Source: an uncultured Rhodospirillaceae bacterium (GTDB lineage Bacteria; Pseudomonadota; Alphaproteobacteria; SP197). Taken from it: a stretch of 64,000 nt of DNA. The notes beneath the pieces were generated by a model. The model saw only the letters and a program-made list of their open reading frames with translations. It searched no databases and was not told the origin of the DNA. The stretch is taken from assembly GCA_964530335.1 (NCBI GenBank), contig CAZGYG010000003.1, positions 23,792 to 87,791 on the forward strand, read 5' to 3'. Both the position numbers and the translations under genes were made by a program. Below, piece after piece: positions 1 to 59,575 of the stretch (position 1 is the stretch's first letter; each line of letters starts with the position of its first letter).

Positions 1-1
1 C

Positions 2-190
2 GGCGACGCGCCCGGTGTCACGGCCGACCAGAACGACGTGTGGCAGCTCGGTGTCGACTACTCGATGGGCCCCGGCATCAGCGTCAGCGGTGCGTTGTCG
101 TACAACGACTTCAACAACAACACCGCCGGCGGTACGGGTCCGGACTACGGCGCCATGTCGGCCATGCTGGGCATGACGATCGACTACTAA
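2..190 (+). CDS. C-terminal fragment of an outer-membrane porin-like beta-barrel protein; the gene starts upstream of the window
   Basis: In-frame translation from nt 2 gives ...GVDYSMGPGISVSGALSYNDFNNNTAGGTGPDYGAMSAMLGMTIDY and a TAA stop. Alternating Gly/aromatic beta-strand pattern with a C-terminal aromatic residue, followed by a strong intrinsic terminator. Confidence 0.5.
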   Translation, partial: GDAPGVTADQNDVWQLGVDYSMGPGISVSGALSYNDFNNNTAGGTGPDYGAMSAMLGMTIDY

Positions 191-213
191 GCGATCCTCG
201 CAAGAGCATCGTG

Positions 214-244
214 GAAGGGCGGCTTCGGCCGCCCTTCTTCTTTG
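214..244 (+). terminator. Rho-independent terminator: GAAGGGCGGC-TTCG-GCCGCCCTTC followed by TTCTTTG
   Basis: Perfect 10-bp GC-rich stem, tetraloop and T-rich tail immediately after the porin-fragment stop. Confidence 0.8.
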
Positions 245-270
245 TGCCGCGGCGGCGGTAGGGGCGGGTT

Positions 271-299
271 GTAGGGGTGGGTCCGAGACCCACCCCTAC
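271..299. repeat. 13-bp perfect inverted repeat GTAGGGGTGGGTC-CGA-GACCCACCCCTAC, preceded by a partial direct copy GGTAGGGGCGGG
   Basis: Seen directly in the sequence; sits about 45-75 bp upstream of the first sulfotransferase start. Confidence 0.6.
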
Positions 300-344
300 C
301 AGCAGGCAATTCCATCGGATCGCAACGCGTTCTACCTTCGCGCC

Positions 345-1184
345 ATGGGCCGCATCGTCTGGATCGCGAGCTTCCCGAAGTCCGGGAACACCTGGGTCCG
401 CGTCTTCCTCAACAACCTGCTGGCGGGCGCCGAGGCGCCGGTCGCGCTCGACTCGATCGGCCGGTTCACGGCCTCGGAGGCGGCGGTCGAGCACTACCGT
501 AGCCTGGACCCGCGCCCGCCCGCGGCGTGGACGCCGGCCGACACGGCCAGGATGCGGCCTCGGGTCCACGCGCACATCGCCGGCCTCAAGGATGGGCTTT
601 CCCTGGTCAAGACCCATTGCCGGCTCGGCCACGACCATGGCCAGCCGACGGTCAACCTGGACGTGACCGCCGGCGCGGTCTACATCGTGCGCGACCCGCT
701 GGACGTGGCGGTCTCGTTCGCCGATCACATGGGCATGACGATCGACCAGGCGATCTCGATCATGGCGTTTCCCGGCGCCTTCACCGATCCGGGCGAAACC
801 ACCGTGTCGGAGCCGCGCGGCTCGTGGTCCGAGAACGTGGCGTCGTGGACAAGCCCCGAGCGCCCCAGCGTCCACGTCGTGCGCTTCGAGGATCTGCTGG
901 CGGATCCCAAGGCAAGGTTCGGCGCGATCGCGCGGCACCTGCGCATCGGCGCCGACGACGCGGCCGTGGACCGGGCGATCAATTTCTCCACCTTCGACGT
1001 CTTGAAGGAGCAGGAACGGAGCCACGGATTCCGCGAGCGCAGCCGTCGCGCGCGCCGGCCGTTTTTCCGCGAAGGCCGCGCCGGCGCGTGGCGCGAGGCG
1101 CTGAGCGAGGTCCAGGTCGGCGCCATCGTCGAGGCGCACCGCGTCGAGATGGGGCGCTTCGGCTACGTGCCGGCCGGGTTCTGA
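345..1184 (+). CDS. PAPS-dependent sulfotransferase (SULT-like, paralog 1)
   Basis: 5'-PSB motif SFPKSGNTW, catalytic-His motif VKTHC, 3'-PB motif RDPLDVAVS; 279 aa. Confidence 0.85.
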   Translation: MGRIVWIASFPKSGNTWVRVFLNNLLAGAEAPVALDSIGRFTASEAAVEHYRSLDPRPPAAWTPADTARMRPRVHAHIAGLKDGLSLVKTHCRLGHDHGQPTVNLDVTAGAVYIVRDPLDVAVSFADHMGMTIDQAISIMAFPGAFTDPGETTVSEPRGSWSENVASWTSPERPSVHVVRFEDLLADPKARFGAIARHLRIGADDAAVDRAINFSTFDVLKEQERSHGFRERSRRARRPFFREGRAGAWREALSEVQVGAIVEAHRVEMGRFGYVPAGF

Positions 1185-1195
1185 GCGCGCCAGAC

Positions 1196-2032
1196 ATGGG
1201 CAAGATCATCTGGCTGGCGAGCTTTCCGAAATCCGGCAACACGTGGCTGCGCGCGTTCCTGCACAACCTGCTGCTCAACCCGGACAAGCCGGTCTACATC
1301 AACGAGCTCGACACCTTCTCTACGAGCGAGTCGGCGCGTAAGCACTATGAACCGTTCCTCGAAGGGCCGTGGCAGGACTGGGCGGATCCGGAGGTCGCCG
1401 CGGCCAGGATCAAGGTGCACGCGGCGCTGACCGGACTTTCGCTCGACAACGTTTTCGTCAAGACGCATTGCGCCCTGGCGATCGACCACGGCCATCCTAC
1501 CGTGAACCTCGACGAGACCGCGGGCGCCATCTACATCGTGCGCAACCCGCTCGACGTGACCATATCGCTGACGCACCACACCGGCATGACCGTCGACCAG
1601 ACGATCCAGGCCATGGCCAACCCGGAAGGTCGCACCAGGACCGAGGAGAAGTACGTGACCGAGCCGCGCGGATCGTGGTCCAACCATGTCGCGAGCTGGA
1701 CGCACAGGCCCCATCCCGGGCTGCTCGTCGTGCGCTACGAGGACATGCTGGAAAAGCCGGATGAGGCCTTCGGCCGGGTCGCGCGCTTCCTCGGCCTCGA
1801 CCCGCCGACGGTGCGGTTCAAGAACGCCATCAACATGTCGAGCTTCAAGGTGCTGCGCACGCAAGAGGAACGCTGGGGCTTCGTCGAACGCAGCCCGAAT
1901 GCGGCGATGTTCTTCCGCGAAGGCCGCGCCGGACAATGGCAAGAGGCGCTGGCCCCGGAGCAGGTTGCCCGGGTGATCGCGGCGCACCGCCAGCAGATGG
2001 CGCGCTTCGGTTACCCGCCGCCAGGGTTCTGA
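1196..2032 (+). CDS. PAPS-dependent sulfotransferase (SULT-like, paralog 2)
   Basis: ATG at 1196 is in frame with track ORF 527..2032. MGKIIWLASFPKSGNTW, VKTHC, RNPLDVTIS. Like paralog 1 it ends ...RFGY.P.GF. Confidence 0.85.
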   Translation: MGKIIWLASFPKSGNTWLRAFLHNLLLNPDKPVYINELDTFSTSESARKHYEPFLEGPWQDWADPEVAAARIKVHAALTGLSLDNVFVKTHCALAIDHGHPTVNLDETAGAIYIVRNPLDVTISLTHHTGMTVDQTIQAMANPEGRTRTEEKYVTEPRGSWSNHVASWTHRPHPGLLVVRYEDMLEKPDEAFGRVARFLGLDPPTVRFKNAINMSSFKVLRTQEERWGFVERSPNAAMFFREGRAGQWQEALAPEQVARVIAAHRQQMARFGYPPPGF

Positions 2033-2043
2033 GCGGGCGAAGA

Positions 2044-2901
2044 ATGGGCAAGATCATCTGGCTCGCCAGCTACCCGAAGTCCGGCAACACGTGGCTGCGC
2101 GCGTTCCTGCACAACCTGCTGCGCAACCCCGACCAGCCGTTCGACATCAACAGGCTGACGGCGTTCAGCCTGGGCGATTCGCTGCCGCAGTTCTACAAAC
2201 AGCTCGACCCGCGCCCGCCGGGCGAGCTCGGTTTCGAGGACATCGCCCGGCTGCGCCCCAGCGTTCACCGGCTGATGACCGAGGCCAGCCCCGACAACGT
2301 GTTCGTCAAGACCCACAACGCGCTCGTCGAGGATTACGACGTGCCGCTGATCACGCTCGAGCTCACCGCCGGCGCGATCTACGTCGTGCGCGACCCGCTC
2401 GACGTCGCCATGTCCTACAGCCACCACCTGGGCGCGTCGATCGACGACACGATCCAGTTCATGGCCGCGTCGGCGGCGCGCACGCCGAGCGGCGACGCCT
2501 TCGTCACCGAGAAGATATGCTCGTGGTCGGTCCACGTCGAAAGCTGGACCGCGAACCCGAACCGGACGCTCCACGTCGTGCGCTACGAGGACATGCACAC
2601 CCAGCCGATCAAGACCTTCGCCGGCATCGCGCGCTTCCTCGGGCTCACCCCGCCGCGCGAGCGGCTCGAGAAGGCGATCCGCTCGTCCTCGTTCCGGGTG
2701 CTGCAAGAACAGGAGAAACGCCACGGCTTCATCGAGCGGAGCCCGGTGGCCGAACGGTTCTTCCGCTCCGGCCGGATGGGCGAAGGCCGCAAGCTGCTGA
2801 CCCCGGCGCAGATCGCGCGGATCGTCGCCGACCACGGCCCCCAGATGGCGCGCTTCGGCTACCTGACCGAGGTCGACGACCGCACGGGCGCCGCGCCATG
2901 A
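2044..2901 (+). CDS. PAPS-dependent sulfotransferase (SULT-like, paralog 3)
   Basis: MGKIIWLASYPKSGNTWLRAFLHNLLRNPDQPFDIN; VKTHN; RDPLDVAMS. First 36 aa nearly identical to paralog 4. Confidence 0.85.
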   Translation: MGKIIWLASYPKSGNTWLRAFLHNLLRNPDQPFDINRLTAFSLGDSLPQFYKQLDPRPPGELGFEDIARLRPSVHRLMTEASPDNVFVKTHNALVEDYDVPLITLELTAGAIYVVRDPLDVAMSYSHHLGASIDDTIQFMAASAARTPSGDAFVTEKICSWSVHVESWTANPNRTLHVVRYEDMHTQPIKTFAGIARFLGLTPPRERLEKAIRSSSFRVLQEQEKRHGFIERSPVAERFFRSGRMGEGRKLLTPAQIARIVADHGPQMARFGYLTEVDDRTGAAP

Positions 2902-3572
2902 TCGTCTGGATCCAGAAGCTGCTCGACGCCCAGGAGGTGCGCCGCATCACCGACGCGCTGGCCGGCGCGCGATATCGACCGGGCAAGACGACCGCGGGCA
3001 TCCTGGCGCGCGGCGCCAAGCGGAACGAGGAGATCGACCCGGAGTCGATCGACAAGGCCGCGCTCGACGCCGTCGTCATGACCGCGCTTCAGCGCAACCA
3101 GACCGTCGAAGCCGCGGCGCGCCCGGCGCGCATCATGCCGCCGATCTACAGCCGCTACGGCGTGGGCGACACCTACGGCAGCCACTTGGACAACGCCACC
3201 ATGGGCCACCTCGAAGCACGCATCCGCGTCGACATGTCGATGACGCTGTTCCTGTCCGACCCGGCGAGCTACGACGGCGGCGAGCTTTCGATCGACACGG
3301 AATACGGCGCCAAGTCGTTCAAGCTGCCGCCCGGCGACGCGGCGATCTACCCGACGCTCTACTACCACGAGGTCAAGCCGGTGACGCGCGGCGTCAGGCT
3401 TGCCTGCGTCACCTGGATGCAGAGCCTGGTGCGCGATCCGCAGCGGCGCCAGATTCTCTACGACATGTCGGTGCTGGCCGAGTGGCTCCACGCCCAACAG
3501 CCGGGCTCGCCCCAGTTCCGCCAATTCAACAAGATCCAGCATAACCTCTATCGCATGTGGGCCGAGGATTGA
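2898..3572 (+). CDS. PKHD-type Fe(II)/2-oxoglutarate-dependent hydroxylase (PiuC/YbiX-like)
   Basis: ATGA overlap with the upstream sulfotransferase stop. 2OG-Fe oxygenase features HLDNA...H and RxS; 224 aa. Confidence 0.85.
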   Translation: MIVWIQKLLDAQEVRRITDALAGARYRPGKTTAGILARGAKRNEEIDPESIDKAALDAVVMTALQRNQTVEAAARPARIMPPIYSRYGVGDTYGSHLDNATMGHLEARIRVDMSMTLFLSDPASYDGGELSIDTEYGAKSFKLPPGDAAIYPTLYYHEVKPVTRGVRLACVTWMQSLVRDPQRRQILYDMSVLAEWLHAQQPGSPQFRQFNKIQHNLYRMWAED

Positions 3573-3582
3573 GCCCGATGCC

Positions 3583-4428
3583 ATGGGCAAGCTGATCTGG
3601 CTGGCGAGCTACCCGAAGTCGGGCAACACGTGGCTGCGCGCGTTCCTGCACAACCTGCTGCGCAACCCGGACCAGCCGTTCGACATCAACAACCTGCGCG
3701 CCTTCTGCGTGGTCGATTCGGTCGCCGAGCTCTACGCCCAGGTCGACCCGCGGCCGGCGACGGCGCTCGGCCCCGAAGGCGTGGCCCGGCTGCGCCCCAG
3801 CGTGCATCGCTTCATCACCACCGCCTCGGCCGACAACGTGTTCGTCAAGACGCACAACGCGATGCTCGACGACTTCGGCGTGCCGACTGTCACCGCCGAG
3901 GTCACCCAGGGCATGATCTACGTCGTGCGCAACCCGCTGGACGTGGCCGTGTCGTTCGCCCACCACCTCGGCGCCTCGCTCGACGACACGATCGCGCTGA
4001 TGAACCGGCCGGGGGCGCGCACGCCGATCACCGCCGAATGGGTCGGCGAGCTGATGGGATCTTGGTCGGAGAACGTGGCGAGCTGGACGGCCGAGCCCGG
4101 CCCGGCCCTGCACGTCGTGCGCTACGAGGACATGCACGCCCGGCCGATCACGACGTTCGGCGATGTCGCGCGCTTCCTCGGCCTCGATCCGCCGCGCGAG
4201 CGGATCGAAAAGGCGATCCGGCTGTCGTCGTTCCGCGTGCTGCGGGAGCAGGAACAGCGCCACGGCTTCATCGAGAAGAGCGTGGCCGCCGACCGGTTTT
4301 TCCGCGAGGGCAAGACCGGCGCCTGGCGCCAGGCGTTGAGCGCGGCCCAGGTCGCGGCGCTCAGCGAGGCGAACCGGACCCAGATGGCGCGCTTCGGCTA
4401 TGTGACCGAGGAGCCCAAGGATGAGTGA
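3583..4428 (+). CDS. PAPS-dependent sulfotransferase (SULT-like, paralog 4)
   Basis: MGKLIWLASYPKSGNTW, VKTHN, RNPLDVAVS; in frame with track ORF 3400..4428. Confidence 0.85.
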   Translation: MGKLIWLASYPKSGNTWLRAFLHNLLRNPDQPFDINNLRAFCVVDSVAELYAQVDPRPATALGPEGVARLRPSVHRFITTASADNVFVKTHNAMLDDFGVPTVTAEVTQGMIYVVRNPLDVAVSFAHHLGASLDDTIALMNRPGARTPITAEWVGELMGSWSENVASWTAEPGPALHVVRYEDMHARPITTFGDVARFLGLDPPRERIEKAIRLSSFRVLREQEQRHGFIEKSVAADRFFREGKTGAWRQALSAAQVAALSEANRTQMARFGYVTEEPKDE

Positions 4429-5104
4429 TGACGTCGCCGACAACCTGGCCGCGGTGAAGGCGCGTATCGCCGCCGCGGCCCGGGCCGCCGGCCGCGACCC
4501 TGACAGTGTCACGCTGGTCGCCGTCGCCAAGACCCACGGCCCGGAACGAATCCAGCCGGCGCTCGTCGCCGGGCACCGGGTGTTCGGCGAGAACCGGGTG
4601 CAGGAGGCGCGCGCCAAATGGCCGGCCTTGCGCGAGCATTACCCGGACCTTGTGCTGCACCTGATCGGGCCACTGCAGACCAACAAGGCGCGCGACGCGC
4701 TGGCCCTGTTCGACGTGATCGAATCGGTGGATCGGCCGCGGCTCGCCGAGGCGCTCGCCCGCGAGATCGAGCGCGGCGGGCGGCGACCGCGCTGCTTCGT
4801 CCAGGTCAACACCGGCGAGGAAGCGCAGAAGGCCGGCGTCGTGCCCGCCGAAGCCGACACGTTCATCGCCGCCTGCCGCGATGACTATGGCCTCGACGTG
4901 GCCGGGCTGATGTGCATCCCGCCCGCCGACGAGCCGCCGGCGCCGCACTTCGCCCTGCTCGCCAAGATCGCGGAGCGCCATGGGCTTTCCGGTCTCAGCA
5001 TGGGCATGAGCGCCGATTTCGAGACCGCGATCCGCTTCGGCGCGAGCCACGTGCGCATCGGCTCCGCCATCTTCGGCGCCCGCCCAACGCTGACGCGAGT
5101 CTAG
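4421..5104 (+). CDS. yggS: YggS-family pyridoxal-phosphate homeostasis protein (alanine-racemase N-terminal fold)
   Basis: 227 aa; the start overlaps the sulfotransferase stop by 8 nt; VAVAKTHG...FGENRVQE motif. Confidence 0.85.
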   Translation: MSDDVADNLAAVKARIAAAARAAGRDPDSVTLVAVAKTHGPERIQPALVAGHRVFGENRVQEARAKWPALREHYPDLVLHLIGPLQTNKARDALALFDVIESVDRPRLAEALAREIERGGRRPRCFVQVNTGEEAQKAGVVPAEADTFIAACRDDYGLDVAGLMCIPPADEPPAPHFALLAKIAERHGLSGLSMGMSADFETAIRFGASHVRIGSAIFGARPTLTRV

Positions 5105-5189
5105 GGCGCGTTCTGATCCTATTGTATGAGCAGCGTTGGCGACGCCGTCCGATCGCACCCTGCTAGCGTTTCGTGTCGCTGGGGTGGCG

Positions 5190-5789
5190 TCAGAACGTTC
5201 GGTCGATGCGACGGCCGTTGGGCGTGGGCGTCGCTTCGTATTGGTCCATCGCCTGGGTCATGGCGTCGAGCGCGTCCTGGTAGCCGGTGATCGCGGGCAC
5301 CCCCGGCGGCACGGTCGGCTCGACCTCGATCGACGCGGGTTCGACCGGGTCCGGCTCGGGCGTCGCTTGCGGCGTCGCGCTGGCCAACTCGACGTCCGGC
5401 GCCGCGCTGGCCAAGGCAGTGGGTTCCGTTTCGTCGTCGCCGAACACGGCGGCGTAGATGTGGCCACCGATGTCCTCGCCAGTCGTGCTCTCGATGATCG
5501 ATTCGATGACGCCGCTGATCAACCCAATCGGTCCGCCGAACAGGGTATCGCCCAGGATGCGCGCGGGCGCCGCCATCTCGTCGCCGGTCAATTCGCGATA
5601 GATCGTGCCGATGATCGGCAGGTGCTGGAGTGGATTGATGATGTCGAGAAAATCGGCGAAGCCGAACGTGCCGGCCTGCGCGACGGCGCCGGAGGGAGCG
5701 GCCACGCCGAAGATGAGCCCCGCCTCGCGGGCCTCGCTCGATCCGGCACGGACGCCGGCGGGCAGTACTCCGACCGAACCCAGGGACAC
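5190..5789 (-). CDS. Hypothetical protein with an acidic Pro/Thr/Glu-rich C-terminal tail
   Basis: 199-aa ORF with a GTG start. N-terminal region FGFADFLDIINPLQHLPIIGTIYRELTGDE is not low-complexity; no recognisable family. Confidence 0.4.
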   Translation of the reverse strand: MSLGSVGVLPAGVRAGSSEAREAGLIFGVAAPSGAVAQAGTFGFADFLDIINPLQHLPIIGTIYRELTGDEMAAPARILGDTLFGGPIGLISGVIESIIESTTGEDIGGHIYAAVFGDDETEPTALASAAPDVELASATPQATPEPDPVEPASIEVEPTVPPGVPAITGYQDALDAMTQAMDQYEATPTPNGRRIDRTF

Positions 5790-5930
5790 GGCTTACCCCT
5801 TGCGTTTGCTTCTTGGTGAGCAATCGCCGTGCCGCGCCGAACTCTGGCTTAAGTAGTTGATTTCGTTGAGATTGCGACTCCCACGACCGGGCGCGCCCGC
5901 CCGCCAGGGCAAGTCTTGCCGGGCGTCGGG

Positions 5931-8312
5931 TCAAGCGCGCAGGGCGGCGCGCTCGCTGAGTGCCTTGTCGAAGGCGGCGAGCCGCGCGAACGCGCGGCCG
6001 TAGACGCCGTCGGGCGGAAATCGGCCTTCGGCGTCCGGCCGCCCGGCCTTAAGGCCGCTCAGGTGCTCGATCGCGTCGTCGACCGACTCGATGCTCCAGA
6101 TGTGGAAGCGCCCGTCGTTCACCGCGGCCATGATGTCCTCGCGCAGCGTCAGGTTGCGCTCGTTCGACACCGGAATGAGGCAGCCCTGGGTACCGGTCAG
6201 GCCGCGTTCGTTGCAGGCGCGGAAGAAACCCTCGATCTTCTGGTTGACGCCGCCGATGGCCTGGACCTGGCCGATCTGGTTGACCGAGCCGGTAATCGCG
6301 AGATCCTGGCGCAGCGGCACCTCGGCCAGCGACGAAATGATCGCGCACAGCTCGGCCATCGAGGCGCTGTCGCCTTCGACGCCGTCGTAGTTCTGCTCGA
6401 ACGTGATCGAGGAGGTGAACGACAGCGGGAAACCGCGCGCGAACGTACCGCGCAGGAAGCCTTCGAGCCCGTAGACGCCCTTCTGCTGGATCGGCCCGCT
6501 GAGTTCGGTGAAGCGCTCGATATTGATGACGCCGTGGATGCCGACGTGCGAGCGGGCGGTGATGCGCACCGGCAGGCCGAAGGCGTGGTCGCCGGTCTCG
6601 AGATAGACAAGCCCGTTGACCTGGCCGATCACGCGGCCGGCGGTGTCGATCAGCGTCTCGCCCTTGAGGATGCTTTCCTGGCTGCGGTCCTCGAGGCGCG
6701 CGTTGCGCCGCCGGCGCTCGTCGAGCGCGCGGCGCACGTCGGCCACGGTGATGGTGTCGCCGGCGGTCTCCTCGACGTAGCGGCTGGCCTCGATCAGCAC
6801 GTCCTCGATCAACTCGAAGCGCGCCGACAGCTTGTCACGCTCGCCGGCCCAGCGCGCGCTTTGGCCCAGCAGCCGGTCGATCGCGCCGGCGTCGCAGCGC
6901 CGGTTGCATTGCTCGCGCGCCGAACGCTGGATCAATCGCGTGTAGGTCGCCACGTCGCCATCGGTGGCTTCCATGTCGGCGTCGATGTCGGCCTTGACCT
7001 TGAAGAACGTGATGAAGCTCGGGTCGGCGGCGAACACCTGGTAGTACCACTGCGGCGCGCCGACGATGACGACCAGCAGCTTCAACGGGATCGGCTTGGG
7101 CGTCGGCGTGCCCGCCATCGGCGCCGTGCCGATGCGGTGCAGCTCCTCGATGCGGATCTCGCGGTCGCGCAGCGCGGCCTTGAGGTACGTCCAGCTCTGC
7201 GGTTCCATCGCCAGGGATTCGGCGCGCAGCACCAGGAACCCGCCGTTCGCCTTGTGCAGGGCGCCGGAGTGGATCTGGGTGAAGTCGGTCTCGAGCGTGC
7301 CGTTCGCGATCCGGTACGTCATGGCGCCGAACAGGTTCTCGTAGGTCGGGTTCGGCTCGAGCACGACGGGCGGGTTGCGGCTGTCGCCGTTGTCGACCAG
7401 CACGTTGACCGCGTAGCGCAGGACCGCGCTCTCGTCGGGCGCCTCGTCCTCGGCGCCGGCGCGCTGGAACAGGTGCAGGTGCTCGATCACGTCGACGCGC
7501 ATCTCGGTCAGCCAGCGGCTCAGGCCCTTGAACCCGGCGAACTCGCTCTGCGCCGCGTCGAGCAGCGGCCCGATTGCCTCGTCGGCGATGCGATGGTTGA
7601 TCCCCGTGATGGACTCGCCGATCCGCGTTTCCGCGTGGCGCGCCTCGGTCCTGAGATCGTCGAGCAGCGGGTCGAGCGTGGCGATCGCGGCCTCGAGTGC
7701 GTGGCGCCGGTCGTCCGGCAGCTCGGCCAGGGCCTCGGCCGGCACGGGCTGGCCGTCCTCGCCGATCACGACGACGTTCAGGCCATGCGGCGTGCGCAGC
7801 ACGTCGAGTCCGCCCTCGCGCGCCCGTGACCGCACGGTGGCGAACCGTTCGTCCAGGCTGGCGCGCGCGGATTCGTTCACGGCGCGCACCTCGTCGACAT
7901 AGGCCTGACTGTTGAGCGAACGGGCGAGCGTGGCGGCGAGCTGGGGCACCAGCTCCGCCATGCGGTCACGGAACTTGCGGCCGAGTCCGGCCGGCAGGCG
8001 GTAGGGCTTGGGCCGCGATGGCCGGGCGAAGTTGTTGAGGTAGACCCAGTCGTCGACCGGGGGCAGCTTGGCGGCGAACGCCCGCAGATAGCCGAGCGTC
8101 GCATTCATTCGCCCCGTCTGGTTCTCGCCCAGGACGAACACGTTGAAGCCTTCGTGGCGGATGCCGAGCGCGAAGCGCAGCGCCTCGCGCGCGCGCTGGT
8201 GCGAGCCCAGGTCGAACACCTGGACGTCGTCGACGGCCCGGCCGTCGACCGTGATTCGATCCGCGAACGACGGCAGGCCGACGGCGTTTGTCTCCAGCGG
8301 CTTGATGGCCAA
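5931..8312 (-). CDS. Lon-like ATP-dependent protease (COG1067: AAA+ module plus Lon S16 proteolytic domain)
   Basis: C-terminal ...GDSASMAELCAIISSLAEVPLRQDLAITGSVNQIGQVQAIGGVNQKIEGF is a Lon protease domain. I place the start at TTG 8312 (reads LAIKPLETNA...) with a GGGGAGGG Shine-Dalgarno about 7 nt upstream. Track ORF 5931..8462 adds an Arg/Gly-rich 50-aa N-terminus that is probably not translated. Confidence 0.75.
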   Translation of the reverse strand: MAIKPLETNAVGLPSFADRITVDGRAVDDVQVFDLGSHQRAREALRFALGIRHEGFNVFVLGENQTGRMNATLGYLRAFAAKLPPVDDWVYLNNFARPSRPKPYRLPAGLGRKFRDRMAELVPQLAATLARSLNSQAYVDEVRAVNESARASLDERFATVRSRAREGGLDVLRTPHGLNVVVIGEDGQPVPAEALAELPDDRRHALEAAIATLDPLLDDLRTEARHAETRIGESITGINHRIADEAIGPLLDAAQSEFAGFKGLSRWLTEMRVDVIEHLHLFQRAGAEDEAPDESAVLRYAVNVLVDNGDSRNPPVVLEPNPTYENLFGAMTYRIANGTLETDFTQIHSGALHKANGGFLVLRAESLAMEPQSWTYLKAALRDREIRIEELHRIGTAPMAGTPTPKPIPLKLLVVIVGAPQWYYQVFAADPSFITFFKVKADIDADMEATDGDVATYTRLIQRSAREQCNRRCDAGAIDRLLGQSARWAGERDKLSARFELIEDVLIEASRYVEETAGDTITVADVRRALDERRRRNARLEDRSQESILKGETLIDTAGRVIGQVNGLVYLETGDHAFGLPVRITARSHVGIHGVINIERFTELSGPIQQKGVYGLEGFLRGTFARGFPLSFTSSITFEQNYDGVEGDSASMAELCAIISSLAEVPLRQDLAITGSVNQIGQVQAIGGVNQKIEGFFRACNERGLTGTQGCLIPVSNERNLTLREDIMAAVNDGRFHIWSIESVDDAIEHLSGLKAGRPDAEGRFPPDGVYGRAFARLAAFDKALSERAALRA

Positions 8313-8509
8313 ATCCAACCCTCCCCGTGGCGCGCGACCGAAGTCGATCCGACCACCGCCGCCCCGTCGCGTCAACGTAGCGCCCGGCCAAACCCGGTCA
8401 ACAGCTTTCGGGGCTCGCGCTTCTTGGGGCCCGCTCTGGCCCCGGCGCGGCCGTTGCGGCACAATGACCCGGTCCGGGGCGCGGTCCGGGCGGCGGAGAA
8501 ACCGGCTTC

Positions 8510-9199
8510 ATGGCGACCACCAAGGACATCCTGCTCGTCGACGACGACCAGACGCTGCGCGCGGCGCTGGCCGAACAGCTCCGCCTGCACGAGGAGTTCG
8601 CCGTGACCGAGGCGGACGGGGCGGCGCGCGCGCTCGACCTGGCGCGGTCCCAGCGCTTCGACCTGGTGCTGCTCGACGTCGGTCTGCCCGACATGGACGG
8701 GCGCGAGCTGTGCAAGGCCCTGCGCCGCGCCGGCCAGAAGATGCCGGTGATCATGCTGACGGCCGCCGTGGGCGAGGCCGACACCATCCTGGGGCTCGAT
8801 TCCGGCGCCAACGACTACGTCGCCAAGCCGTTCAAGCTGGGCGTCCTGCTGGCGCGCATCCGGGCGCAGTTGCGCGCCCACGAACAGAGCGAGGACGCCA
8901 CGTTCGTCATCGGCCCCTACAACTTCCACCCGGCGCAGAAGCTGCTGGTCCACAAGGACACGCAGAAGAAGGTGCGGCTCACCGAGAAGGAAACGGGGAT
9001 CCTCAAGTTCCTGCTGCGCTCGGGCGGGCAGCCGGTGGGGCGCGACGTGCTGCTCGACCAGGTATGGGGCTACAACGCCGCGGTCACCACCCACACGCTC
9101 GAGACACACATTTACCGCTTGCGCCAGAAGATCGAGCCCGACCCGTCGAACGCCACGCTGCTGATCACCGAGCTGGGCGGCTACCGGCTCAACCCGTGA
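8510..9199 (+). CDS. OmpR-family two-component response regulator (receiver plus winged-helix DNA-binding domain), orphan
   Basis: ILLVDDD...LVLLDVGLPDMDG receiver domain; C-terminal OmpR-like RLTEKE...YRLRQK. No histidine kinase in the window. Confidence 0.9.
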   Translation: MATTKDILLVDDDQTLRAALAEQLRLHEEFAVTEADGAARALDLARSQRFDLVLLDVGLPDMDGRELCKALRRAGQKMPVIMLTAAVGEADTILGLDSGANDYVAKPFKLGVLLARIRAQLRAHEQSEDATFVIGPYNFHPAQKLLVHKDTQKKVRLTEKETGILKFLLRSGGQPVGRDVLLDQVWGYNAAVTTHTLETHIYRLRQKIEPDPSNATLLITELGGYRLNP

Positions 9200-10370
9200 C
9201 GGCTCCAAGCCGGACAAGGCGGCGGACGAGCAACCAGGCCCCGGCGCCCGCGCCGAGCGTGAGCGCGCCGTAAAGCGGCCACACCGCGTCCCAACCGCCG
9301 AACCGCTCGACCACCAGGGGCAGCAGCAGCGGCCCGGCCAGCACGCCGAAGTTGCGCCCGCGCATGAGCACGCCGAACGCCGCGGCTCCGGCGCCCTTGT
9401 GCCCCATGACGATCCCCGGCATGGCGAACAGGCAGACCGGCGTCATGCCGCAGCACACGCCGTAGAGCACAAGCCCCACGAGCCCGGCGGCGCCATCGAG
9501 CCAGGGCACGGCGAACCACACCGCCGCCTCGATCGCGATCGAACCGACGAACACGGGCGCCAGCGGCAGCCCGGCGCGCATCGCCCAGCCGGTCGCCAGG
9601 TTGAGCACCAGGACGGCGAACGGGACCAGGCTGGCGGCGCCGATCGCCTGGTCGGCGCCGAGCCCCAACCCGGTCACCAGATAAACGTTGAGCCAGCCCA
9701 CGAAGCTGATGTATTGCCCCGCCCACAGCAGGTAGACGAGCGAAGCGAGCACGAGCGCCCGCCGCTCGGCCGCGCTGGCCGCCGTGCCCGCCGCGCCGGC
9801 GCTCAAGGTGAACCCCCGGGGGCCGGCCGCCCGGGTCCAGGCCAGAACGGCGAGCGCGGCGCCGAGCGCGACCCACCACACCCATTGCCACGACCCCGCG
9901 GCGGCGAACGGGTAGGCGATGGCGTTGGCCAGGAGCTGGCCGATCGGCACCCACGCGGCGGAGATGCCGGCGACGAACACGGCCTGGCCCGGCGCCGCCG
10001 CCCGCATGGCGATGGCCGGGCCGGCGATGGCCAGCACCGTGAAGCCGAGCCCCTCGAAACCGCGCGCGGCCAGCATGACGAGGCCGCTTTCCGGCATGGC
10101 GAGGCCGAGCGCGCAGCCCACGGCGATCGCGGCGCACGCGGCCTCGACCAGGCGGAGCCCGAGGCGTTCGAGCGCGTGCCCGGCGCGCACCGACAAGGCC
10201 AAGCCGAGCAGGGCGTAGATCGCCATCAGGCCGCCGGCCAGCTTCGGGTCGTAACCGTAGCGCTCGAGCAGAATCGGCAGGACCGGCGGCAGCTTGTAAT
10301 GCTCGAACGTCGCGAGCACGGCGAGCGTCAGGCCGAAGGCAACGCCCGCCCAGCGCGTCCCGCCGGTCAT
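9189..10370 (-). CDS. MFS transporter
   Basis: About 12 predicted TM helices. Start taken at the internal ATG (MTGGTRWAGVAFGL...) because the 63 aa upstream are Arg-rich and non-membrane. Confidence 0.7.
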   Translation of the reverse strand: MTGGTRWAGVAFGLTLAVLATFEHYKLPPVLPILLERYGYDPKLAGGLMAIYALLGLALSVRAGHALERLGLRLVEAACAAIAVGCALGLAMPESGLVMLAARGFEGLGFTVLAIAGPAIAMRAAAPGQAVFVAGISAAWVPIGQLLANAIAYPFAAAGSWQWVWWVALGAALAVLAWTRAAGPRGFTLSAGAAGTAASAAERRALVLASLVYLLWAGQYISFVGWLNVYLVTGLGLGADQAIGAASLVPFAVLVLNLATGWAMRAGLPLAPVFVGSIAIEAAVWFAVPWLDGAAGLVGLVLYGVCCGMTPVCLFAMPGIVMGHKGAGAAAFGVLMRGRNFGVLAGPLLLPLVVERFGGWDAVWPLYGALTLGAGAGAWLLVRRLVRLGAVTG

Positions 10371-39258: not shown

Positions 39259-40214
39259 CCGGCGACCCGCTCGACCGGCTGGTCGCGCTGGTCGCGCCGG
39301 AATCCCGGGCGACCGTGCCGGCGGAGCTCGGCGTCGTCGTCGCGGCGCTGCGTGCCCGCTTCGGTCCGGCCGTGGCGGCGGTGCTTTATTACGGTTCGTG
39401 CCTGCGGCTGGGCACGCTCGATGGCGTGATCGACGTCTACGTGCTGATCGATGACGTCGCGCCCGCGCCCCTGCGGCGGCGGGCGATGGGCGGTGCGATC
39501 CTGGCCTTGGCGTGCCGGCTCCTGCCGCCCAACGTCTACCACCTGTCGGTCGATGGGCCGCGCACGCTTGCCGTCAAGGCGGCGGTGATGTCGCTCGCGG
39601 GCTTCGCGCGGGGCCTCGAGGTAACGGCTTTCGTGCCGGCGCTCTGGGCGCGCTTCGCCCAGCCGGCCGTGGCGGTCTACGCCCGCGACGAGGCGATCGC
39701 GGCATCGCTCGATCGTTTGCGCGCCCGGGCCGTCGCCACCGCGGCGTGGCACGGCGCCCATCTGGCGCCTGCCCGCGCGGAGCCCTTGGAGCCGTGGCGC
39801 CGCGTGTTCCGCGCGACCTACGGCTGCGAGTTGCGCGCCGAGGCTGTCGACCGGGCCGACGCGGTGGTCGAGGCGGCGGCCCTGCGCTACGCCGAGCTGA
39901 CGCGCCCCGCGCTCGCCGCCGCCGGGATCGCCTGGACCGAGGGGACGGGTGCGCTCGAACTCGCGGTAGGCGCCGGTGCGCGTCGCCGCGCGCGGCTGGC
40001 CTGGGCGCTGCGCCGCCCCGCCGGCAAGCTGCTGAGTCTGCTCAGGTTGGCCAAGGCCGCATTCACGTTCGAGGGTGGCGCCGACTACCTGGCGTGGAAG
40101 ATCGAGCGTCATGCCGGCGTGCGGCCCGCGCTCTCGCCCTGGCAGCGGCGTCACCCGCTGCTTGCGCTGCCTTTGCTGGCCTGGCGGCTTTGGCGCCAGG
40201 GCGTTGTGCGCTAG
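39255..40214 (+). CDS. Hypothetical protein, possibly nucleotidyltransferase-fold (YYGS...IDVYVLIDD)
   Basis: ATGA overlap with the kinase stop; 319 aa; no firm family; 3' end is convergent on spt. Confidence 0.4.
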   Translation: MTGDPLDRLVALVAPESRATVPAELGVVVAALRARFGPAVAAVLYYGSCLRLGTLDGVIDVYVLIDDVAPAPLRRRAMGGAILALACRLLPPNVYHLSVDGPRTLAVKAAVMSLAGFARGLEVTAFVPALWARFAQPAVAVYARDEAIAASLDRLRARAVATAAWHGAHLAPARAEPLEPWRRVFRATYGCELRAEAVDRADAVVEAAALRYAELTRPALAAAGIAWTEGTGALELAVGAGARRRARLAWALRRPAGKLLSLLRLAKAAFTFEGGADYLAWKIERHAGVRPALSPWQRRHPLLALPLLAWRLWRQGVVR

Positions 40215-41428
40215 CCCGCGGCGACGGCGAGGCTCGGCTTGAGCACGCCGAGCGCGACGCCGGTGTCGTTGAACACGTCGACCATGCGCGCGATCTGCTT
40301 GCGCGTGTGGGCGGCCGAGATGCTGCAGCGCAGCAGGGGATTGCCCCCCGGGGTCGCCGGCGGCAAGGCCAGGTTCACGTACACGCCGTTCTCGAGCAGC
40401 ATGTTCCAGAACCTGATGGCGATCTCGACGTCGGGCAGCTTGACCGCGACCACCGGGCTGACCTGCGGGCCGAGCTCGTAGCCGAGCCCGCCGAGCCCGT
40501 CGTACAGCGCGCGGGCGTTGCCGGCGAGCCGGGTGCGCAGTTCGGGCCGGCGTTCGACGATCTCGAGCGCCTTGAGCACCGAGGCCATGATGCTCGGCGG
40601 CAGCGAGGCCGTGAACATGTACGGCCGGCACGCGACGCGCAGCACGTCGAAGTCCTCGTGATCCGAAACGCAGAAGCCGCCCACCGCGCCCAGGCTCTTG
40701 CTGAACGTGCCGACGACGTAATCGACGTCCGCCTCGCAGCCCGCCTCCTCGGCCAGGCCGCGGCCCAGGCGCCCGAGCACGCCCATCGAATGGGCCTCGT
40801 CGACCATCAGGTAGGCGCCGTGGCGGCGCTTGATCGCGACGAACTCGGCCAGCGGCGCGCGGTCGCCGACCATGCTGTAGATGCCCTCGACGATGATCAG
40901 GCGCGCCTGGCCGTCCGCGGGAAGCCGGCTCAGGCGCCGGTCCAGGTCGACCGGGTCGTTGTGGCGGAACCGCGTCACCTTGGCCCCGCCCAGCCGGCAG
41001 CCGTCGTAGATGCTGGCGTGGCAATCGGCGTCGATGACTAGGTGGTCGTTCGGCCCGGCGAGCGTCGAGATCATGCCCAGGTTGGCCTGATAGCCGGTCG
41101 AGAACACCATGCAATGCCGCCGTCCGTAGTAGCGCGCGAGTTCCAGTTCGAGCTGGCAATGGGCGGTGTACGAGCCGTTGGCGATGCGCGAACCGGTGGT
41201 GCCGGTGCCTTCATGGCTGAGCGACGCGATGGCGGCCTCGATGCACTCCGGATCGAAGGTCAGGCCCAGGTAGTTGTTGGTGCCGACCAGCAGGGTACGC
41301 CGACCCTCGATGATCGCCTCGGTCGGCGAGATCACCTTGTCGATCGATACCTTGAACGGGTTGCGGCCACGCTCGGCGAGCGCCCGGTAGGTCGCCGCCA
41401 GTGGCGCGAACTTCGCGTACAGGTCCAT
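40211..41428 (-). CDS. spt: Serine palmitoyltransferase (alpha-oxoamine synthase family, PLP-dependent)
   Basis: GTFSKSLG PLP-lysine motif; 405 aa. The context (dedicated ACP, SDR, acyl-ACP synthetase) argues for Spt rather than BioF/Kbl. Confidence 0.75.
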   Translation of the reverse strand: MDLYAKFAPLAATYRALAERGRNPFKVSIDKVISPTEAIIEGRRTLLVGTNNYLGLTFDPECIEAAIASLSHEGTGTTGSRIANGSYTAHCQLELELARYYGRRHCMVFSTGYQANLGMISTLAGPNDHLVIDADCHASIYDGCRLGGAKVTRFRHNDPVDLDRRLSRLPADGQARLIIVEGIYSMVGDRAPLAEFVAIKRRHGAYLMVDEAHSMGVLGRLGRGLAEEAGCEADVDYVVGTFSKSLGAVGGFCVSDHEDFDVLRVACRPYMFTASLPPSIMASVLKALEIVERRPELRTRLAGNARALYDGLGGLGYELGPQVSPVVAVKLPDVEIAIRFWNMLLENGVYVNLALPPATPGGNPLLRCSISAAHTRKQIARMVDVFNDTGVALGVLKPSLAVAAG

Positions 41429-41431
41429 GGC

Positions 41432-58480: not shown

Positions 58481-59575
58481 GTGGAACGAATCGTGGTCGA
58501 CTTCGCGCAACGCCCACGCCGCAGGCTCGAGACGGGCGATGCGCTCGAGCGCGGCGACCGGGTGCCGAACTTCTGGCTGCCCGACCAAACGGGCGAAGGC
58601 ATCATGTTCTACGAGGCAGTGCAGGGTCGGCCGATCCTCGTGGTCCTGCATCGCGCCACTCGCGAGCCCGCGCACGTCGCCGCGCTCAAGGGGCTGATCG
58701 AGTTCGCCCGCCGCCACGAAGTCCATCCGTTCGCCATCGGTCGGGATTCGGTCGCCGCGCACGCGGCGCTCGGGCTCGACGCTCCGCTCCTCGCCGATGT
58801 CGAAGGCCGCATTACCGCCCAGCTCACGCGCCGACTCGGCCAGGGTACGACCGAGACGGCGCCCGTGGTGCTGGTGTGCGACCCCAACCAGCGCTTGCTC
58901 GACACCTTGGTGGTCACGGACCTGGCGGCCGCGACCGAGCGCATAGCGGCGCTCATGGCGCCGTTCGCGCCGCGCGGCGGGGCCGCGAAGCTGCTGCGGG
59001 TGGCGCCGGTGCTCGTCGTTCCCGATGTGCTCGACGAAGCGTGGCGGCACCGCTTGATCGAGCTTTGGCACGCCGACCATGACGAGGGCAAGGTCGCCAC
59101 CCAGGTGGGCGACACGATGGAGGCGCGGCTCAACTACGGCACCAAGCGCCGGCTCGACCACACGATCACCGAGCCCGAGCTCAATCGCACCCTGGCCCGC
59201 GCGATCGCGCGGCGGATCGCCCCCGAGATGGTCAAGGCATTCCACTTCCAGGGCTTCTGGTTCGAACCCTTCATCGTCATGGGCTACGACGCGGGGCGCG
59301 CCGATTTCTTCCGCCCCCACCGGGACAATCTGATCCCGGCGCTCGCCAACCGACGCTTCGCCCTGACGCTCAACCTTAACACCGACGACTACGAAGGCGG
59401 CGACCTTCGCTTCCCCGAGTACGGCGACGAGGTCTACGGCGCGCCCGCCGGCGGGGCGGTGGTGTTCTCGTGTTCGCTCCTGCACGAGGCGCTGCCGGTC
59501 ACGCGCGGGCGCCGCTTCGCGCTTCTGAGCTTCATGCGCTCCGACGCGCCGGCATCGCGACCGGCGGCGTCCTAG
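58481..59575 (+). CDS. Fusion protein: Cys-less redoxin/AhpC-TSA-like N-terminal domain plus 2OG-Fe(II) oxygenase C-terminal domain
   Basis: N-terminal PNFWLPDQTGEGIMFYEAVQGRPILVVLHR (peroxiredoxin-like fold, no Cys). C-terminal HRD...LLHEALPVTRGRRFALLSF (His-x-Asp...His plus RxS). Confidence 0.65.
   Translation: MERIVVDFAQRPRRRLETGDALERGDRVPNFWLPDQTGEGIMFYEAVQGRPILVVLHRATREPAHVAALKGLIEFARRHEVHPFAIGRDSVAAHAALGLDAPLLADVEGRITAQLTRRLGQGTTETAPVVLVCDPNQRLLDTLVVTDLAAATERIAALMAPFAPRGGAAKLLRVAPVLVVPDVLDEAWRHRLIELWHADHDEGKVATQVGDTMEARLNYGTKRRLDHTITEPELNRTLARAIARRIAPEMVKAFHFQGFWFEPFIVMGYDAGRADFFRPHRDNLIPALANRRFALTLNLNTDDYEGGDLRFPEYGDEVYGAPAGGAVVFSCSLLHEALPVTRGRRFALLSFMRSDAPASRPAAS

Follow-up and report, generated by a model that had tools for sequence, protein, structure and literature searches.

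To our knowledge, bacterial sulfation dependent on 3'-phosphoadenosine 5'-phosphosulfate (PAPS) is known from few cases, i.e. Nod factors, mycobacterial sulfolipids, glycopeptide antibiotics, RaxX and the SULTs of gut Bacteroides. Teg12, Teg13 and Teg14 are paralogs of one gene cluster, each of which sulfates a different site on one scaffold. The PiuC family of Fe(II)/2-oxoglutarate (2OG) dioxygenases is clinically relevant to cefiderocol susceptibility. PiuC, YbiX and CciO are cytoplasmic dioxygenases that are co-conserved with the TonB-dependent transporters Fiu, PiuA and CciT and are needed for transporter function (PMC12004947). Iyer, Abhiman, de Souza and Aravind (2010) predicted neighbourhoods of a 2OG-dioxygenase, a sulfotransferase and a PAPS synthetase with a 'hydroxylate then sulfate' logic (PMC2938197). 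Among the sulfotransferases of rhizobia, LpsS is annotated as a member of the Stf0 family (PMC12445080). A head-to-tail array of four sulfotransferase genes (ST1 to ST4), with an embedded dioxygenase gene (HYD) and a terminal yggS gene, was analysed in a 64,000-nt stretch of contig CAZGYG010000003.1 from an uncultured Rhodospirillaceae bacterium (assembly GCA_964530335.1). This whole stretch is referred to as the window, and the genes of the array lie in it as follows:

345-1184, + strand: ST1, sulfotransferase of 279 aa, 77.8 bits against PF00685, the paralog diverging most
1196-2032, + strand: ST2, sulfotransferase of 278 aa, 103.4 bits against PF00685
2044-2901, + strand: ST3, sulfotransferase of 285 aa, 97 bits against PF00685, stop codon overlapping the HYD start (ATGA)
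2898-3572, + strand: HYD, 224 aa, Fe(II)/2-oxoglutarate dioxygenase of the PiuC/YbiX/CciO family (PKHD type)
3583-4428, + strand: ST4, sulfotransferase of 281 aa, 101.6 bits against PF00685, 3' end overlapping yggS by 8 nt
4421-5104, + strand: yggS, gene for a 227-aa protein of pyridoxal phosphate binding and homeostasis, 3' end of the unit

All four STs passed the Pfam cut-off of 22 bits for Sulfotransfer_1 (PF00685) in a hidden Markov model (HMM) search, spanning profile positions 4-255 with E-values of 1e-21 to 1e-29, and so bear out the four sulfotransferases proposed in a first-pass annotation of this DNA. The naming of the last gene as yggS in that annotation agrees with a full-length match to TIGR00044 (168.3 bits against a cut-off of 106.25). 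The intergenic spacings from ST1 to yggS are 11, 11, -4, 10 and -8 nt (window 345-5104), exactly the overlaps of 4 and 8 nt and the other gaps of about 10 nt that had been described; the genes are tightly packed and probably co-translated. GC content at third codon positions (GC3) is 0.84-0.89 in three reading frames of the ST array and in yggS (i.e. those passing the GC3 filter), in a genome of roughly 70% GC. The HMM E-values, the GC3 values and the retention of gene order in other genomes exclude chance open reading frames (ORFs) as the source of the array genes. PADLOC returned nothing for the STs and only a generic 2OG-domain match for HYD; a role in anti-phage defence was rejected on the lack of an ST match in PADLOC.

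Conservation of the catalytic machinery was assessed for the four STs and 16 homologs. The 5'-phosphosulfate loop (PKSGNTW) is unchanged in all of them. The catalytic histidine lies in KTHC (ST1 and ST2) or KTHN (ST3 and ST4), and K89 and H91 are invariant across the 16 homologs. The 3'-phosphate motif reads RDPLDVAVS in ST1, RNPLDVTIS in ST2, RDPLDVAMS in ST3 and RNPLDVAVS in ST4, and positions R116, P118, L119, D120 and S124 are invariant in the 16-homolog comparison. A fourth SULT motif, FFR(E/S)G(R/K)xG, occurs in all four STs. The motif set given in the first-pass annotation therefore stands for PKSGNTW and KTH(C/N), whereas its 3'-phosphate motif is slightly too strict for ST2, which nevertheless retains R, D and S. 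PAPS-binding residues, whose loss had been named as grounds for giving up the assignment, are present in all four copies.

An AlphaFold2 model of ST2 (pLDDT 90.9) was compared with the PDB using Foldseek, which gave 110 matches at E<=1e-3. The best 50 of these 110 were inspected and all were of Teg12 or cytosolic-SULT type, headed by the Teg12-PAP-teicoplanin aglycone complex (TM 0.70) and followed by SULT2A1, SULT1A1 and SULT1E1 (TM about 0.65). No heparan-type, NodH-type or other carbohydrate sulfotransferase and no tyrosyl-protein sulfotransferase (TPST) was present in the best 50 of 110. A sequence comparison with the PDB likewise placed Teg12, Teg14 and StaL first (E about 1e-23 to 1e-16), ahead of human SULT1 enzymes. 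The earlier description of the STs as 'eukaryotic-SULT-like' needs adjusting, as the nearest solved relatives are the bacterial Teg12, Teg14 and StaL, but it is apt to the extent that animal SULTs come a close second. The modelled fold is thus that of small-molecule or peptide sulfotransferases (Teg12, SULT1/2). The STs start right at the PAPS loop and carry neither signal peptide nor anchor, and are therefore predicted to be cytoplasmic. Differences between paralogs are concentrated in residues 41-80, 121-160 and 241-280, where few columns are invariant within the orthologous groups, the PAPS motifs being invariant; these stretches presumably correspond roughly to the acceptor-binding loops of SULTs. 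ST1 to ST4 are intact paralogs of a predicted PAPS-dependent O-sulfotransferase of small-molecule type.

The wider family was examined by an ST search that yielded 7,288 matches at E<=1e-5 among 8,000 candidates, mostly from Alphaproteobacteria. One genome per species was scanned, giving 80 loci that were tabulated with HMMs (locus numbers carry the prefix L). The order ST-ST-ST-HYD-ST-yggS, for which a synteny search had been proposed, recurs in L087, L088/89/90, L093 and L007 (in L007 at ORF level only). Identity to the window ST2 is 81% in L087, 68% in L088/89/90 and 62% in both L093 and L007. These full-array relatives also carry the downstream genes of the window, i.e. those for a protein of no known family, a LonC-like protease, a response regulator, a major facilitator superfamily (MFS) transporter and a metallo-beta-lactamase (MBL)-fold protein. 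A variant arrangement, ST-HYD-HYD-ST-ST-yggS, in which HYD is duplicated, occurs in L092. In L091, the nearest relative with three copies, the order is ST-ST-ST-yggS, and hydroxylase and porin are both missing. Many Alphaproteobacteria possess one to four ST copies at the same locus without the hydroxylase, and a single ST is present in many lineages. The locus belongs to an ancient, conserved block close to the origin that runs gidAB-parAB, holA-lptE-leuS, DUF3576, porin, ST, yggS and, further on, response regulator, MFS and MBL genes. From its distribution, the window array is a clade-specific elaboration of a widespread single-gene locus. The proposal of a dedicated cassette did not hold in the sense of a self-contained unit, as ST loci without HYD are common, ST1 decays in two relatives and HYD is duplicated in L092. 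The remark that such arrays are not a standard operon type is only partly right, as they recur across Proteobacteria (L016, L059, L068 and arrays of tetratricopeptide repeat (TPR) sulfotransferases in Lysobacterales); all of them are uncharacterised. The literature was searched for this ST clade, for its porin/yggS locus and for ST arrays containing a PiuC-type enzyme, and none of them was found described.

The product of HYD matches PF13640 (2OG-FeII_Oxy_3) and PF18331 (PKHD_C) and scores 230 bits against NCBIfam NF003974 ('Fe2+-dependent dioxygenase' equivalog; cut-off 143), in agreement with its annotation as an embedded PKHD/PiuC 2OG-Fe(II) hydroxylase. It aligns over its full length to a Shewanella PKHD hydroxylase (PDB 3DKQ, 1e-44) and also to PiuC of P. 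aeruginosa (PDB 9GHL, 2e-42). The Fe(II)/2OG ligands (HxD...H...R) are kept, the HLD, H and R positions being aligned to those of 3DKQ. Identity to canonical PiuC/YbiX proteins is at most 48%. Homologs that are at least 67% identical to HYD sit within ST arrays in every case where context was looked up, and a homolog of 56% identity (L095) lies outside any ST array. HYD is thus a diverged member of the PiuC/YbiX dioxygenase family and a clade-specific recruit into the ST array. The 4-nt overlap of ST3 and HYD is retained in L087, L088, L092 and L093 (i.e. the relatives with called genes), and this conservation suggests translational coupling. No TonB-receptor homolog was detected across the 64-kb window. 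Elsewhere in the window (58481-59572, + strand), a 2OG-FeII_Oxy_3-type protein of about 365 aa is encoded that is homologous to two 370-aa oxygenases flanking the ST/porin locus of Hypericibacter adhaerens (L004 6730-8992; E 2e-76).

The overall explanation favoured for the array, to which somewhat less than an even chance is given, is a set of PAPS-dependent small-molecule O-sulfotransferases that includes a hydroxylate-then-sulfate pair, HYD and ST3. One ancestral ST copy would have been expanded in tandem to three and then to four. HYD would place a hydroxyl group on a low-molecular-weight acceptor and ST3 would sulfate this hydroxyl from PAPS, whilst ST1, ST2 and ST4 would sulfate other positions or close analogues in the manner of Teg12, Teg13 and Teg14. 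On this explanation yggS would be a co-transcribed housekeeping passenger. The hydroxylate-then-sulfate step of the first-pass annotation is plausible for HYD and ST3, the array and the 4-nt overlap being kept in relatives.

The duplication history of the STs was reconstructed from pairwise identities and a neighbour-joining (NJ) tree. Identities are 44-54%, with the exception of ST3 and ST4 (65%). The C-termini of ST1 (RFGYVPAGF) and ST2 (RFGYPPPGF) are of a common type and ST3 and ST4 share 35 of their 36 N-terminal residues, both as originally noted. This 36-residue N-terminus approximates the consensus of the whole ST family. The first 120 nt of ST3 and ST4 differ at 12 positions with one amino-acid change in the first 36 residues, indicating purifying selection on the PAPS-loop helix. 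Recent gene conversion was rejected as the origin of the shared N-terminus because of these 12 differences in 120 nt and because the peptide equals the family consensus. The NJ tree pairs ST1 with ST2 and ST3 with ST4, which fits the two duplication pairs proposed earlier, but ST1 is fast-evolving and by identity is not nearer to ST2 than ST2 is to ST3 or ST4. The ST1/ST2 and ST2/ST3 junctions are homologous, each consisting of a gene end in ...GGGTTCTGA, an 11-nt spacer and then ATGGGCAAGATCATCTGG; they are the footprint left when a unit of one ST and its spacer was duplicated in tandem.

The four copies and their orthologs form one monophyletic clade in the NJ tree, and independent expansions are placed elsewhere in it (three copies in L016, four in L059, two plus two in L068, and two in each of L064 and L009/L012). 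ST1 is decaying in two relatives: in L093 (5614-6323) its ortholog is a pseudogene, frameshifted after about 110 codons, interrupted by an in-frame stop and shortened by a deletion of ~50 aa, and in L007 (about 8920-10080) the copy is similarly degraded and split over three frames. The four window copies are thus a lineage-specific tandem expansion at a locus under gene birth and death. Such turnover (i.e. copy numbers of one to four, separate expansions in other lineages, the decay of ST1 and the doubling of HYD) would also be expected if there were no concerted pathway, with the STs acting independently as broad-specificity phase II-style conjugators or being near-neutral duplicates on the yggS transcript, and with the PiuC-like gene incidental and iron-related. 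The lack of HYD from most loci and the position of yggS as the sole universally conserved downstream partner agree with this alternative. It is nevertheless judged unlikely, since the ortholog groups of ST2, ST3 and ST4 and their order are kept across genomes at 62-88% identity, the ATGA overlap of ST3 and HYD is kept in the window and four genomes, the array-embedded HYD clade is separate from canonical PiuC and the 64-kb window lacks a TonB receptor.

Recurrent partners of the ST family were counted over 84 non-redundant loci, a channel gene being scored when within 600 bp of an ST. A gene for an outer membrane (OM) beta-barrel was present in 35 of the 84, i.e. Porin_4 in 27 loci, Legionella_OMP in six and TonB-dependent receptors in two. 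All Legionella_OMP genes are divergently oriented. Shewanella marinintestina has TonB-dependent receptors on either side of its ST. Porin_4 and ST genes are duplicated as two-gene units in L042/L045, L048, L068 and L072, some of them inverted, and L042/L045 (OZ220705.1, about 2,910,450-2,924,331) contains three porin-ST pairs in 14 kb. No acceptor motifs or special features were seen in the ST-adjacent porins, which look like ordinary Porin_4 proteins with standard signal peptides.

A second recurrent association is with sulfate activation. Genes for cysD and a cysN-cysC (adenosine 5'-phosphosulfate kinase) fusion are located directly 3' of the ST in L023 (1204-4013) and L038 (1691-4450), both confirmed by Pfam, and likewise in L047 (6121-8903) and L050 (10165-13657), both found with phmmer. 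In these four loci they are placed between the ST and yggS. This adjacency, read as a dedicated PAPS supply, supports a predicted PAPS dependence of the ST family.

With respect to the acceptor in the favoured explanation of a sulfotransferase set with an HYD-ST3 pair, a small compound, hydroxylated or phenolic, that passes the OM appears most likely. It would be either a nutrient or xenobiotic that is taken up and conjugated or a sulfated metabolite that is exported. This is the weakest step of that explanation. An OM-crossing small acceptor is favoured because there are no scaffold genes nearby, because the recurrent partners are OM channels and PAPS synthesis and because PiuC-type enzymes are normally paired with OM transporters; a compound made by a biosynthetic cluster at the locus is less probable.

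TPR proteins accompany the STs of several other lineages. In Lysobacterales (Gammaproteobacteria), a single PF00685-type ST lies among three to five TPR-Sulfotransfer_3 genes that run head to tail (L070 3653-12480, L075 80-8179 and L084 1802-9883; also L058, L065, L069 and L076). Parvibaculum has one TPR-Sulfotransfer_3 gene a few kb from the ST, and the loci of Hypericibacter and L047 also encode TPR-GT41 and TPR-methyltransferase proteins as well as other 2OG oxygenases. In Hypericibacter adhaerens (CP042582.1; L004 11844-15780), an ST is followed by a divergent second ST, a TPR-GT41 gene (O-GlcNAc-transferase-like) and a Sulfotransfer_3-like gene, then by a gene for a 324-aa protein and three tandem Porin_4 genes.

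These architectures are typical of protein modification and, together with the repeated adjacency of STs to OM beta-barrel genes, the duplication of porin-ST pairs as units and the precedent of predicted dioxygenase, sulfotransferase and PAPS-synthase operons (Iyer et al. 2010, PMC2938197), they give some support to a reading in which HYD, with its prolyl-hydroxylase-like PKHD fold, and the STs hydroxylate and sulfate a secreted or OM protein (e.g. the porin) in the cytoplasm, ahead of its export. This reading appears quite improbable. A domain for protein recognition, such as TPR, is lacking in the STs, the best 50 of 110 fold matches include no TPST-type enzyme and no small precursor ORF is found in the 10-11 nt gaps or the 155-nt leader. 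The adjacent porins look ordinary and without a distinctive acceptor motif, and porin and ST copy numbers do not covary. A more general proposal, also quite speculative and doubtful, is that the ST family forms the core of an as yet unrecognised OM-channel-coupled sulfation system, widespread in Alphaproteobacteria, that includes the PiuC-type dioxygenase, TPR-sulfotransferases, TPR-methyltransferases and TPR-GT41. Two versions are possible: a cytoplasmic hydroxylation and sulfation, in phase I/phase II style, of compounds admitted by the porin or receptor, or the hydroxylation and sulfation of OM proteins before export. If the proposal were true, the four-copy array of the window would be the most elaborate form known.

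The further features of the window to which the argument refers are as follows:

2-190, + strand: 3' end of a Porin_4 gene (last 62 codons and stop), the remainder of which lies upstream of the window
213-238, + strand: intrinsic terminator of the porin gene from a terminator scan, with an 11-bp GC-rich stem followed by a T-run
258-299, no strand assigned: repeat element with three copies of GTAGGGG(T/C)GGGT, upstream of ST1
5190-5789, - strand: gene for a conserved 199-aa protein, convergent to yggS, with an Ala/Pro/Glu-rich C-terminal half
5931-8462, - strand: gene for a LonC-like protease (LonC_helical, AAA_32, LonB LID and Lon_C)
40214-41431: gene for an Spt-like class-I/II aminotransferase, within the envelope-lipid region

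Two Logan contigs with an identical ST1 (L001/L002) supply the complete upstream gene, which encodes a 381-aa PF13609 porin and ends about 155 bp before ST1. The porin terminator hairpin is kept in L093, L092 and L007, and because of this conservation the ST array is taken to be largely a separate transcription unit. In L007, a metagenome-assembled genome from Lake Tanganyika, the hairpin GGAGGGCGG(C/T)TTCGGCCGCCCTCC and its tail are tandemly repeated ~6 times (about 8960-9160), as compared to once in the window. Between the terminator and ST1, two direct copies and one inverted copy of the repeat at 258-299 give a perfect 13-bp hairpin. GTAGGGG(T/C)GGGT has five matches against 1.09 expected, three of them within this element. 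The element is not conserved among the relatives compared and could be an operator, a second hairpin or a repetitive extragenic palindromic (REP)-like element. An Rfam scan of window positions 1-6000 gave no credible match, and a riboswitch or small RNA leader was rejected on this result. The ST1 leader, when read through, showed no evident Fur-type box, although no formal search for one was made.

On the downstream side, yggS follows the STs in about 24 loci, often directly abutting them. It is a near-universal housekeeping gene, and the STs look like insertions in its upstream region. Sulfation of vitamin B6 was considered from the adjacency to yggS and set aside, synteny alone being its basis. 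The convergent 199-aa protein has no Pfam, NCBIfam or PADLOC match. Its homologs are encoded in 14 further ST loci, downstream of and convergent to yggS where genes have been called (L087, L088, L091 and L092). The LonC-like protease gene is conserved 3' of yggS across the clade of the window (L007, L087, L088, L091, L092 and L093), and further downstream lie genes for an OmpR-type regulator, an MFS transporter, an MBL-fold protein and an Opp-type ATP-binding cassette (ABC) system. No cysDNC homolog was found in the 64-kb window.

Positions 21791-50590 of the window constitute an envelope-lipid region with two GT1 glycosyltransferases, ABC exporters, two CDP-alcohol phosphatidyltransferase-like proteins, LptF/G, an AMP-binding enzyme, an Elm1-like glycosyltransferase, a KdsB-like cytidylyltransferase, a methyltransferase and an MsbA-like ABC protein. 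The first-pass annotation had guessed from the lipid and glycan genes that the product is a sulfated (glyco)lipid akin to sulfatides or sulfonolipids. In a related rival explanation, the STs modify a glycolipid, sphingolipid, lipid A/lipopolysaccharide (LPS) core or capsule whose synthesis is encoded elsewhere in the genome, with HYD adding a further acceptor hydroxyl. The Spt-like, GT1, LptF/G, KdsB-like and MsbA-like genes of the window are in keeping with such envelope sulfation, as are the envelope-related neighbours of STs (i.e. porin, DUF3576, lptE and, in L096, YkuD), the substantial PAPS flux implied by cysD-cysNC beside family members and the occurrence of LPS sulfation in Sinorhizobium (PMC12445080). 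However, the lipid and glycan genes are >15 kb from the ST array and are separated from it by the Lon protease, response regulator, MFS, MBL and Opp ABC genes.

The link was examined further by searching +/-10 kb of the STs in about 85 loci for homologs of the Spt-like, GT1, Elm1, CDP-alcohol-transferase and AMP-binding genes. No GT1, Elm1 or CDP-alcohol-transferase homolog was found within these limits, and the search gave only single matches to the aminotransferase (L060) and the AMP-binding enzyme (L042), both from broad families. The sphingolipid or glycolipid guess was rejected as unsupported on this evidence, i.e. distant genes in the window and single broad-family matches near STs. The enzymes also differ from known envelope sulfotransferases, as LpsS is of the Stf0 family, for which the window STs gave no match (PF09037, E<=0.01), and the NoeE HMM matched ST2 only, at 16.3 bits against a cut-off of 500. 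In fold the STs are nearest to small-molecule SULTs and Teg12 and not to carbohydrate sulfotransferases, and they have no membrane anchor. Envelope sulfation in its general form is accordingly given a low probability.

Several points weigh against the preferred explanation, i.e. a set of small-molecule sulfotransferases in which HYD and ST3 form a pair. The strong conserved terminator of the porin gene indicates that porin and STs are not one operon, and the porin-ST-yggS adjacency could be inherited synteny as opposed to functional linkage. The OM association rests perhaps on about three independent events, the Legionella_OMP cases coming from a single ST clade, and the adjacency of TonB receptors in Lysobacterales or Shewanella may be due to chance. 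Most ST loci, and L091 with them, lack HYD, indicating that hydroxylation is not intrinsic to the function of the family. The changes in copy number, the decay of ST1 and the doubling of HYD agree with a loose group of enzymes acting independently no less than with a fixed pathway.

The ST clade has >7,000 detected homologs and belongs to the origin-proximal core of many environmental Alphaproteobacteria, with no characterised member. If the acceptor were identified, a sulfated metabolite or a route of conjugation that is widespread among soil, freshwater and marine bacteria would come to light. The embedded HYD would provide a second, non-siderophore context for PiuC-type dioxygenases, and a defined product of the step from HYD to ST3 could show what enzymes of the PiuC family hydroxylate.

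Amongst described systems, Teg12/13/14 and StaL (PDB 3MG9, 3MGB, 3NIB and 2OV8) are the best match to the window STs in both sequence (E about 6e-23) and structure (TM 0.70), and the PKxGNTW, KTH, RNPxD..S and GSW(S/P)xNVxSWT segments are found on both sides. Identity is only about 22%, and the Teg/StaL enzymes derive from an actinobacterial secondary-metabolite cluster whereas the window STs occupy a proteobacterial core-genome locus. Annotation of parts of the window and of about 85 related ST loci showed neither non-ribosomal peptide synthetase (NRPS) nor glycopeptide genes, and because there is no NRPS context the window STs are not considered to be glycopeptide tailoring enzymes. The cytosolic SULT1 and SULT2 enzymes of animals and plants have in common with the STs all four PAPS/catalytic motifs, the fold (TM about 0.65), solubility and a length of about 280-300 aa, and both groups exhibit lineage-specific tandem expansion with divergent acceptor loops. 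The window STs differ from these in being bacterial, marginally nearer to Teg12/StaL and linked to porin, yggS and cysDNC genes. NodH, NoeE and LpsS resemble the window STs as PAPS-dependent alphaproteobacterial enzymes, with a supply of NodPQ/CysDNC type, but they belong to different families and no nod or LPS gene context is present at the array. An identity of NodH/NoeE/LpsS type was rejected because the HMMs do not match and LpsS is an Stf0 protein; the NodH-type carbohydrate sulfotransferases whose discovery would have spoken against the first-pass reading were thus not encountered, no NoeE- or Stf0-type HMM match being obtained.

The neighbourhoods predicted by Iyer et al. follow the same logic as the window array, and PAPS-synthesis genes are present in some loci of the ST family. 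Those operons contain beta-hydroxylase or PhyH-type dioxygenases and another type of sulfotransferase, whereas the dioxygenase of the window is of PKHD/PiuC type. They also encode collagen-like or tail-collar substrates, none of which was seen between porin and yggS in the window. With PiuC, YbiX and CciO, HYD shares family membership by score (NF003974; 3DKQ and 9GHL) and the HxD...H...R ligands. Like PiuC, it lies in a locus anchored by an OM channel gene; unlike PiuC, its neighbours are ST3, which it overlaps, and ST4, and the window contains no TonB-dependent transporter. The class of chemistry is familiar, and what is new is a conserved ST locus with a PiuC-type enzyme in a non-canonical context.

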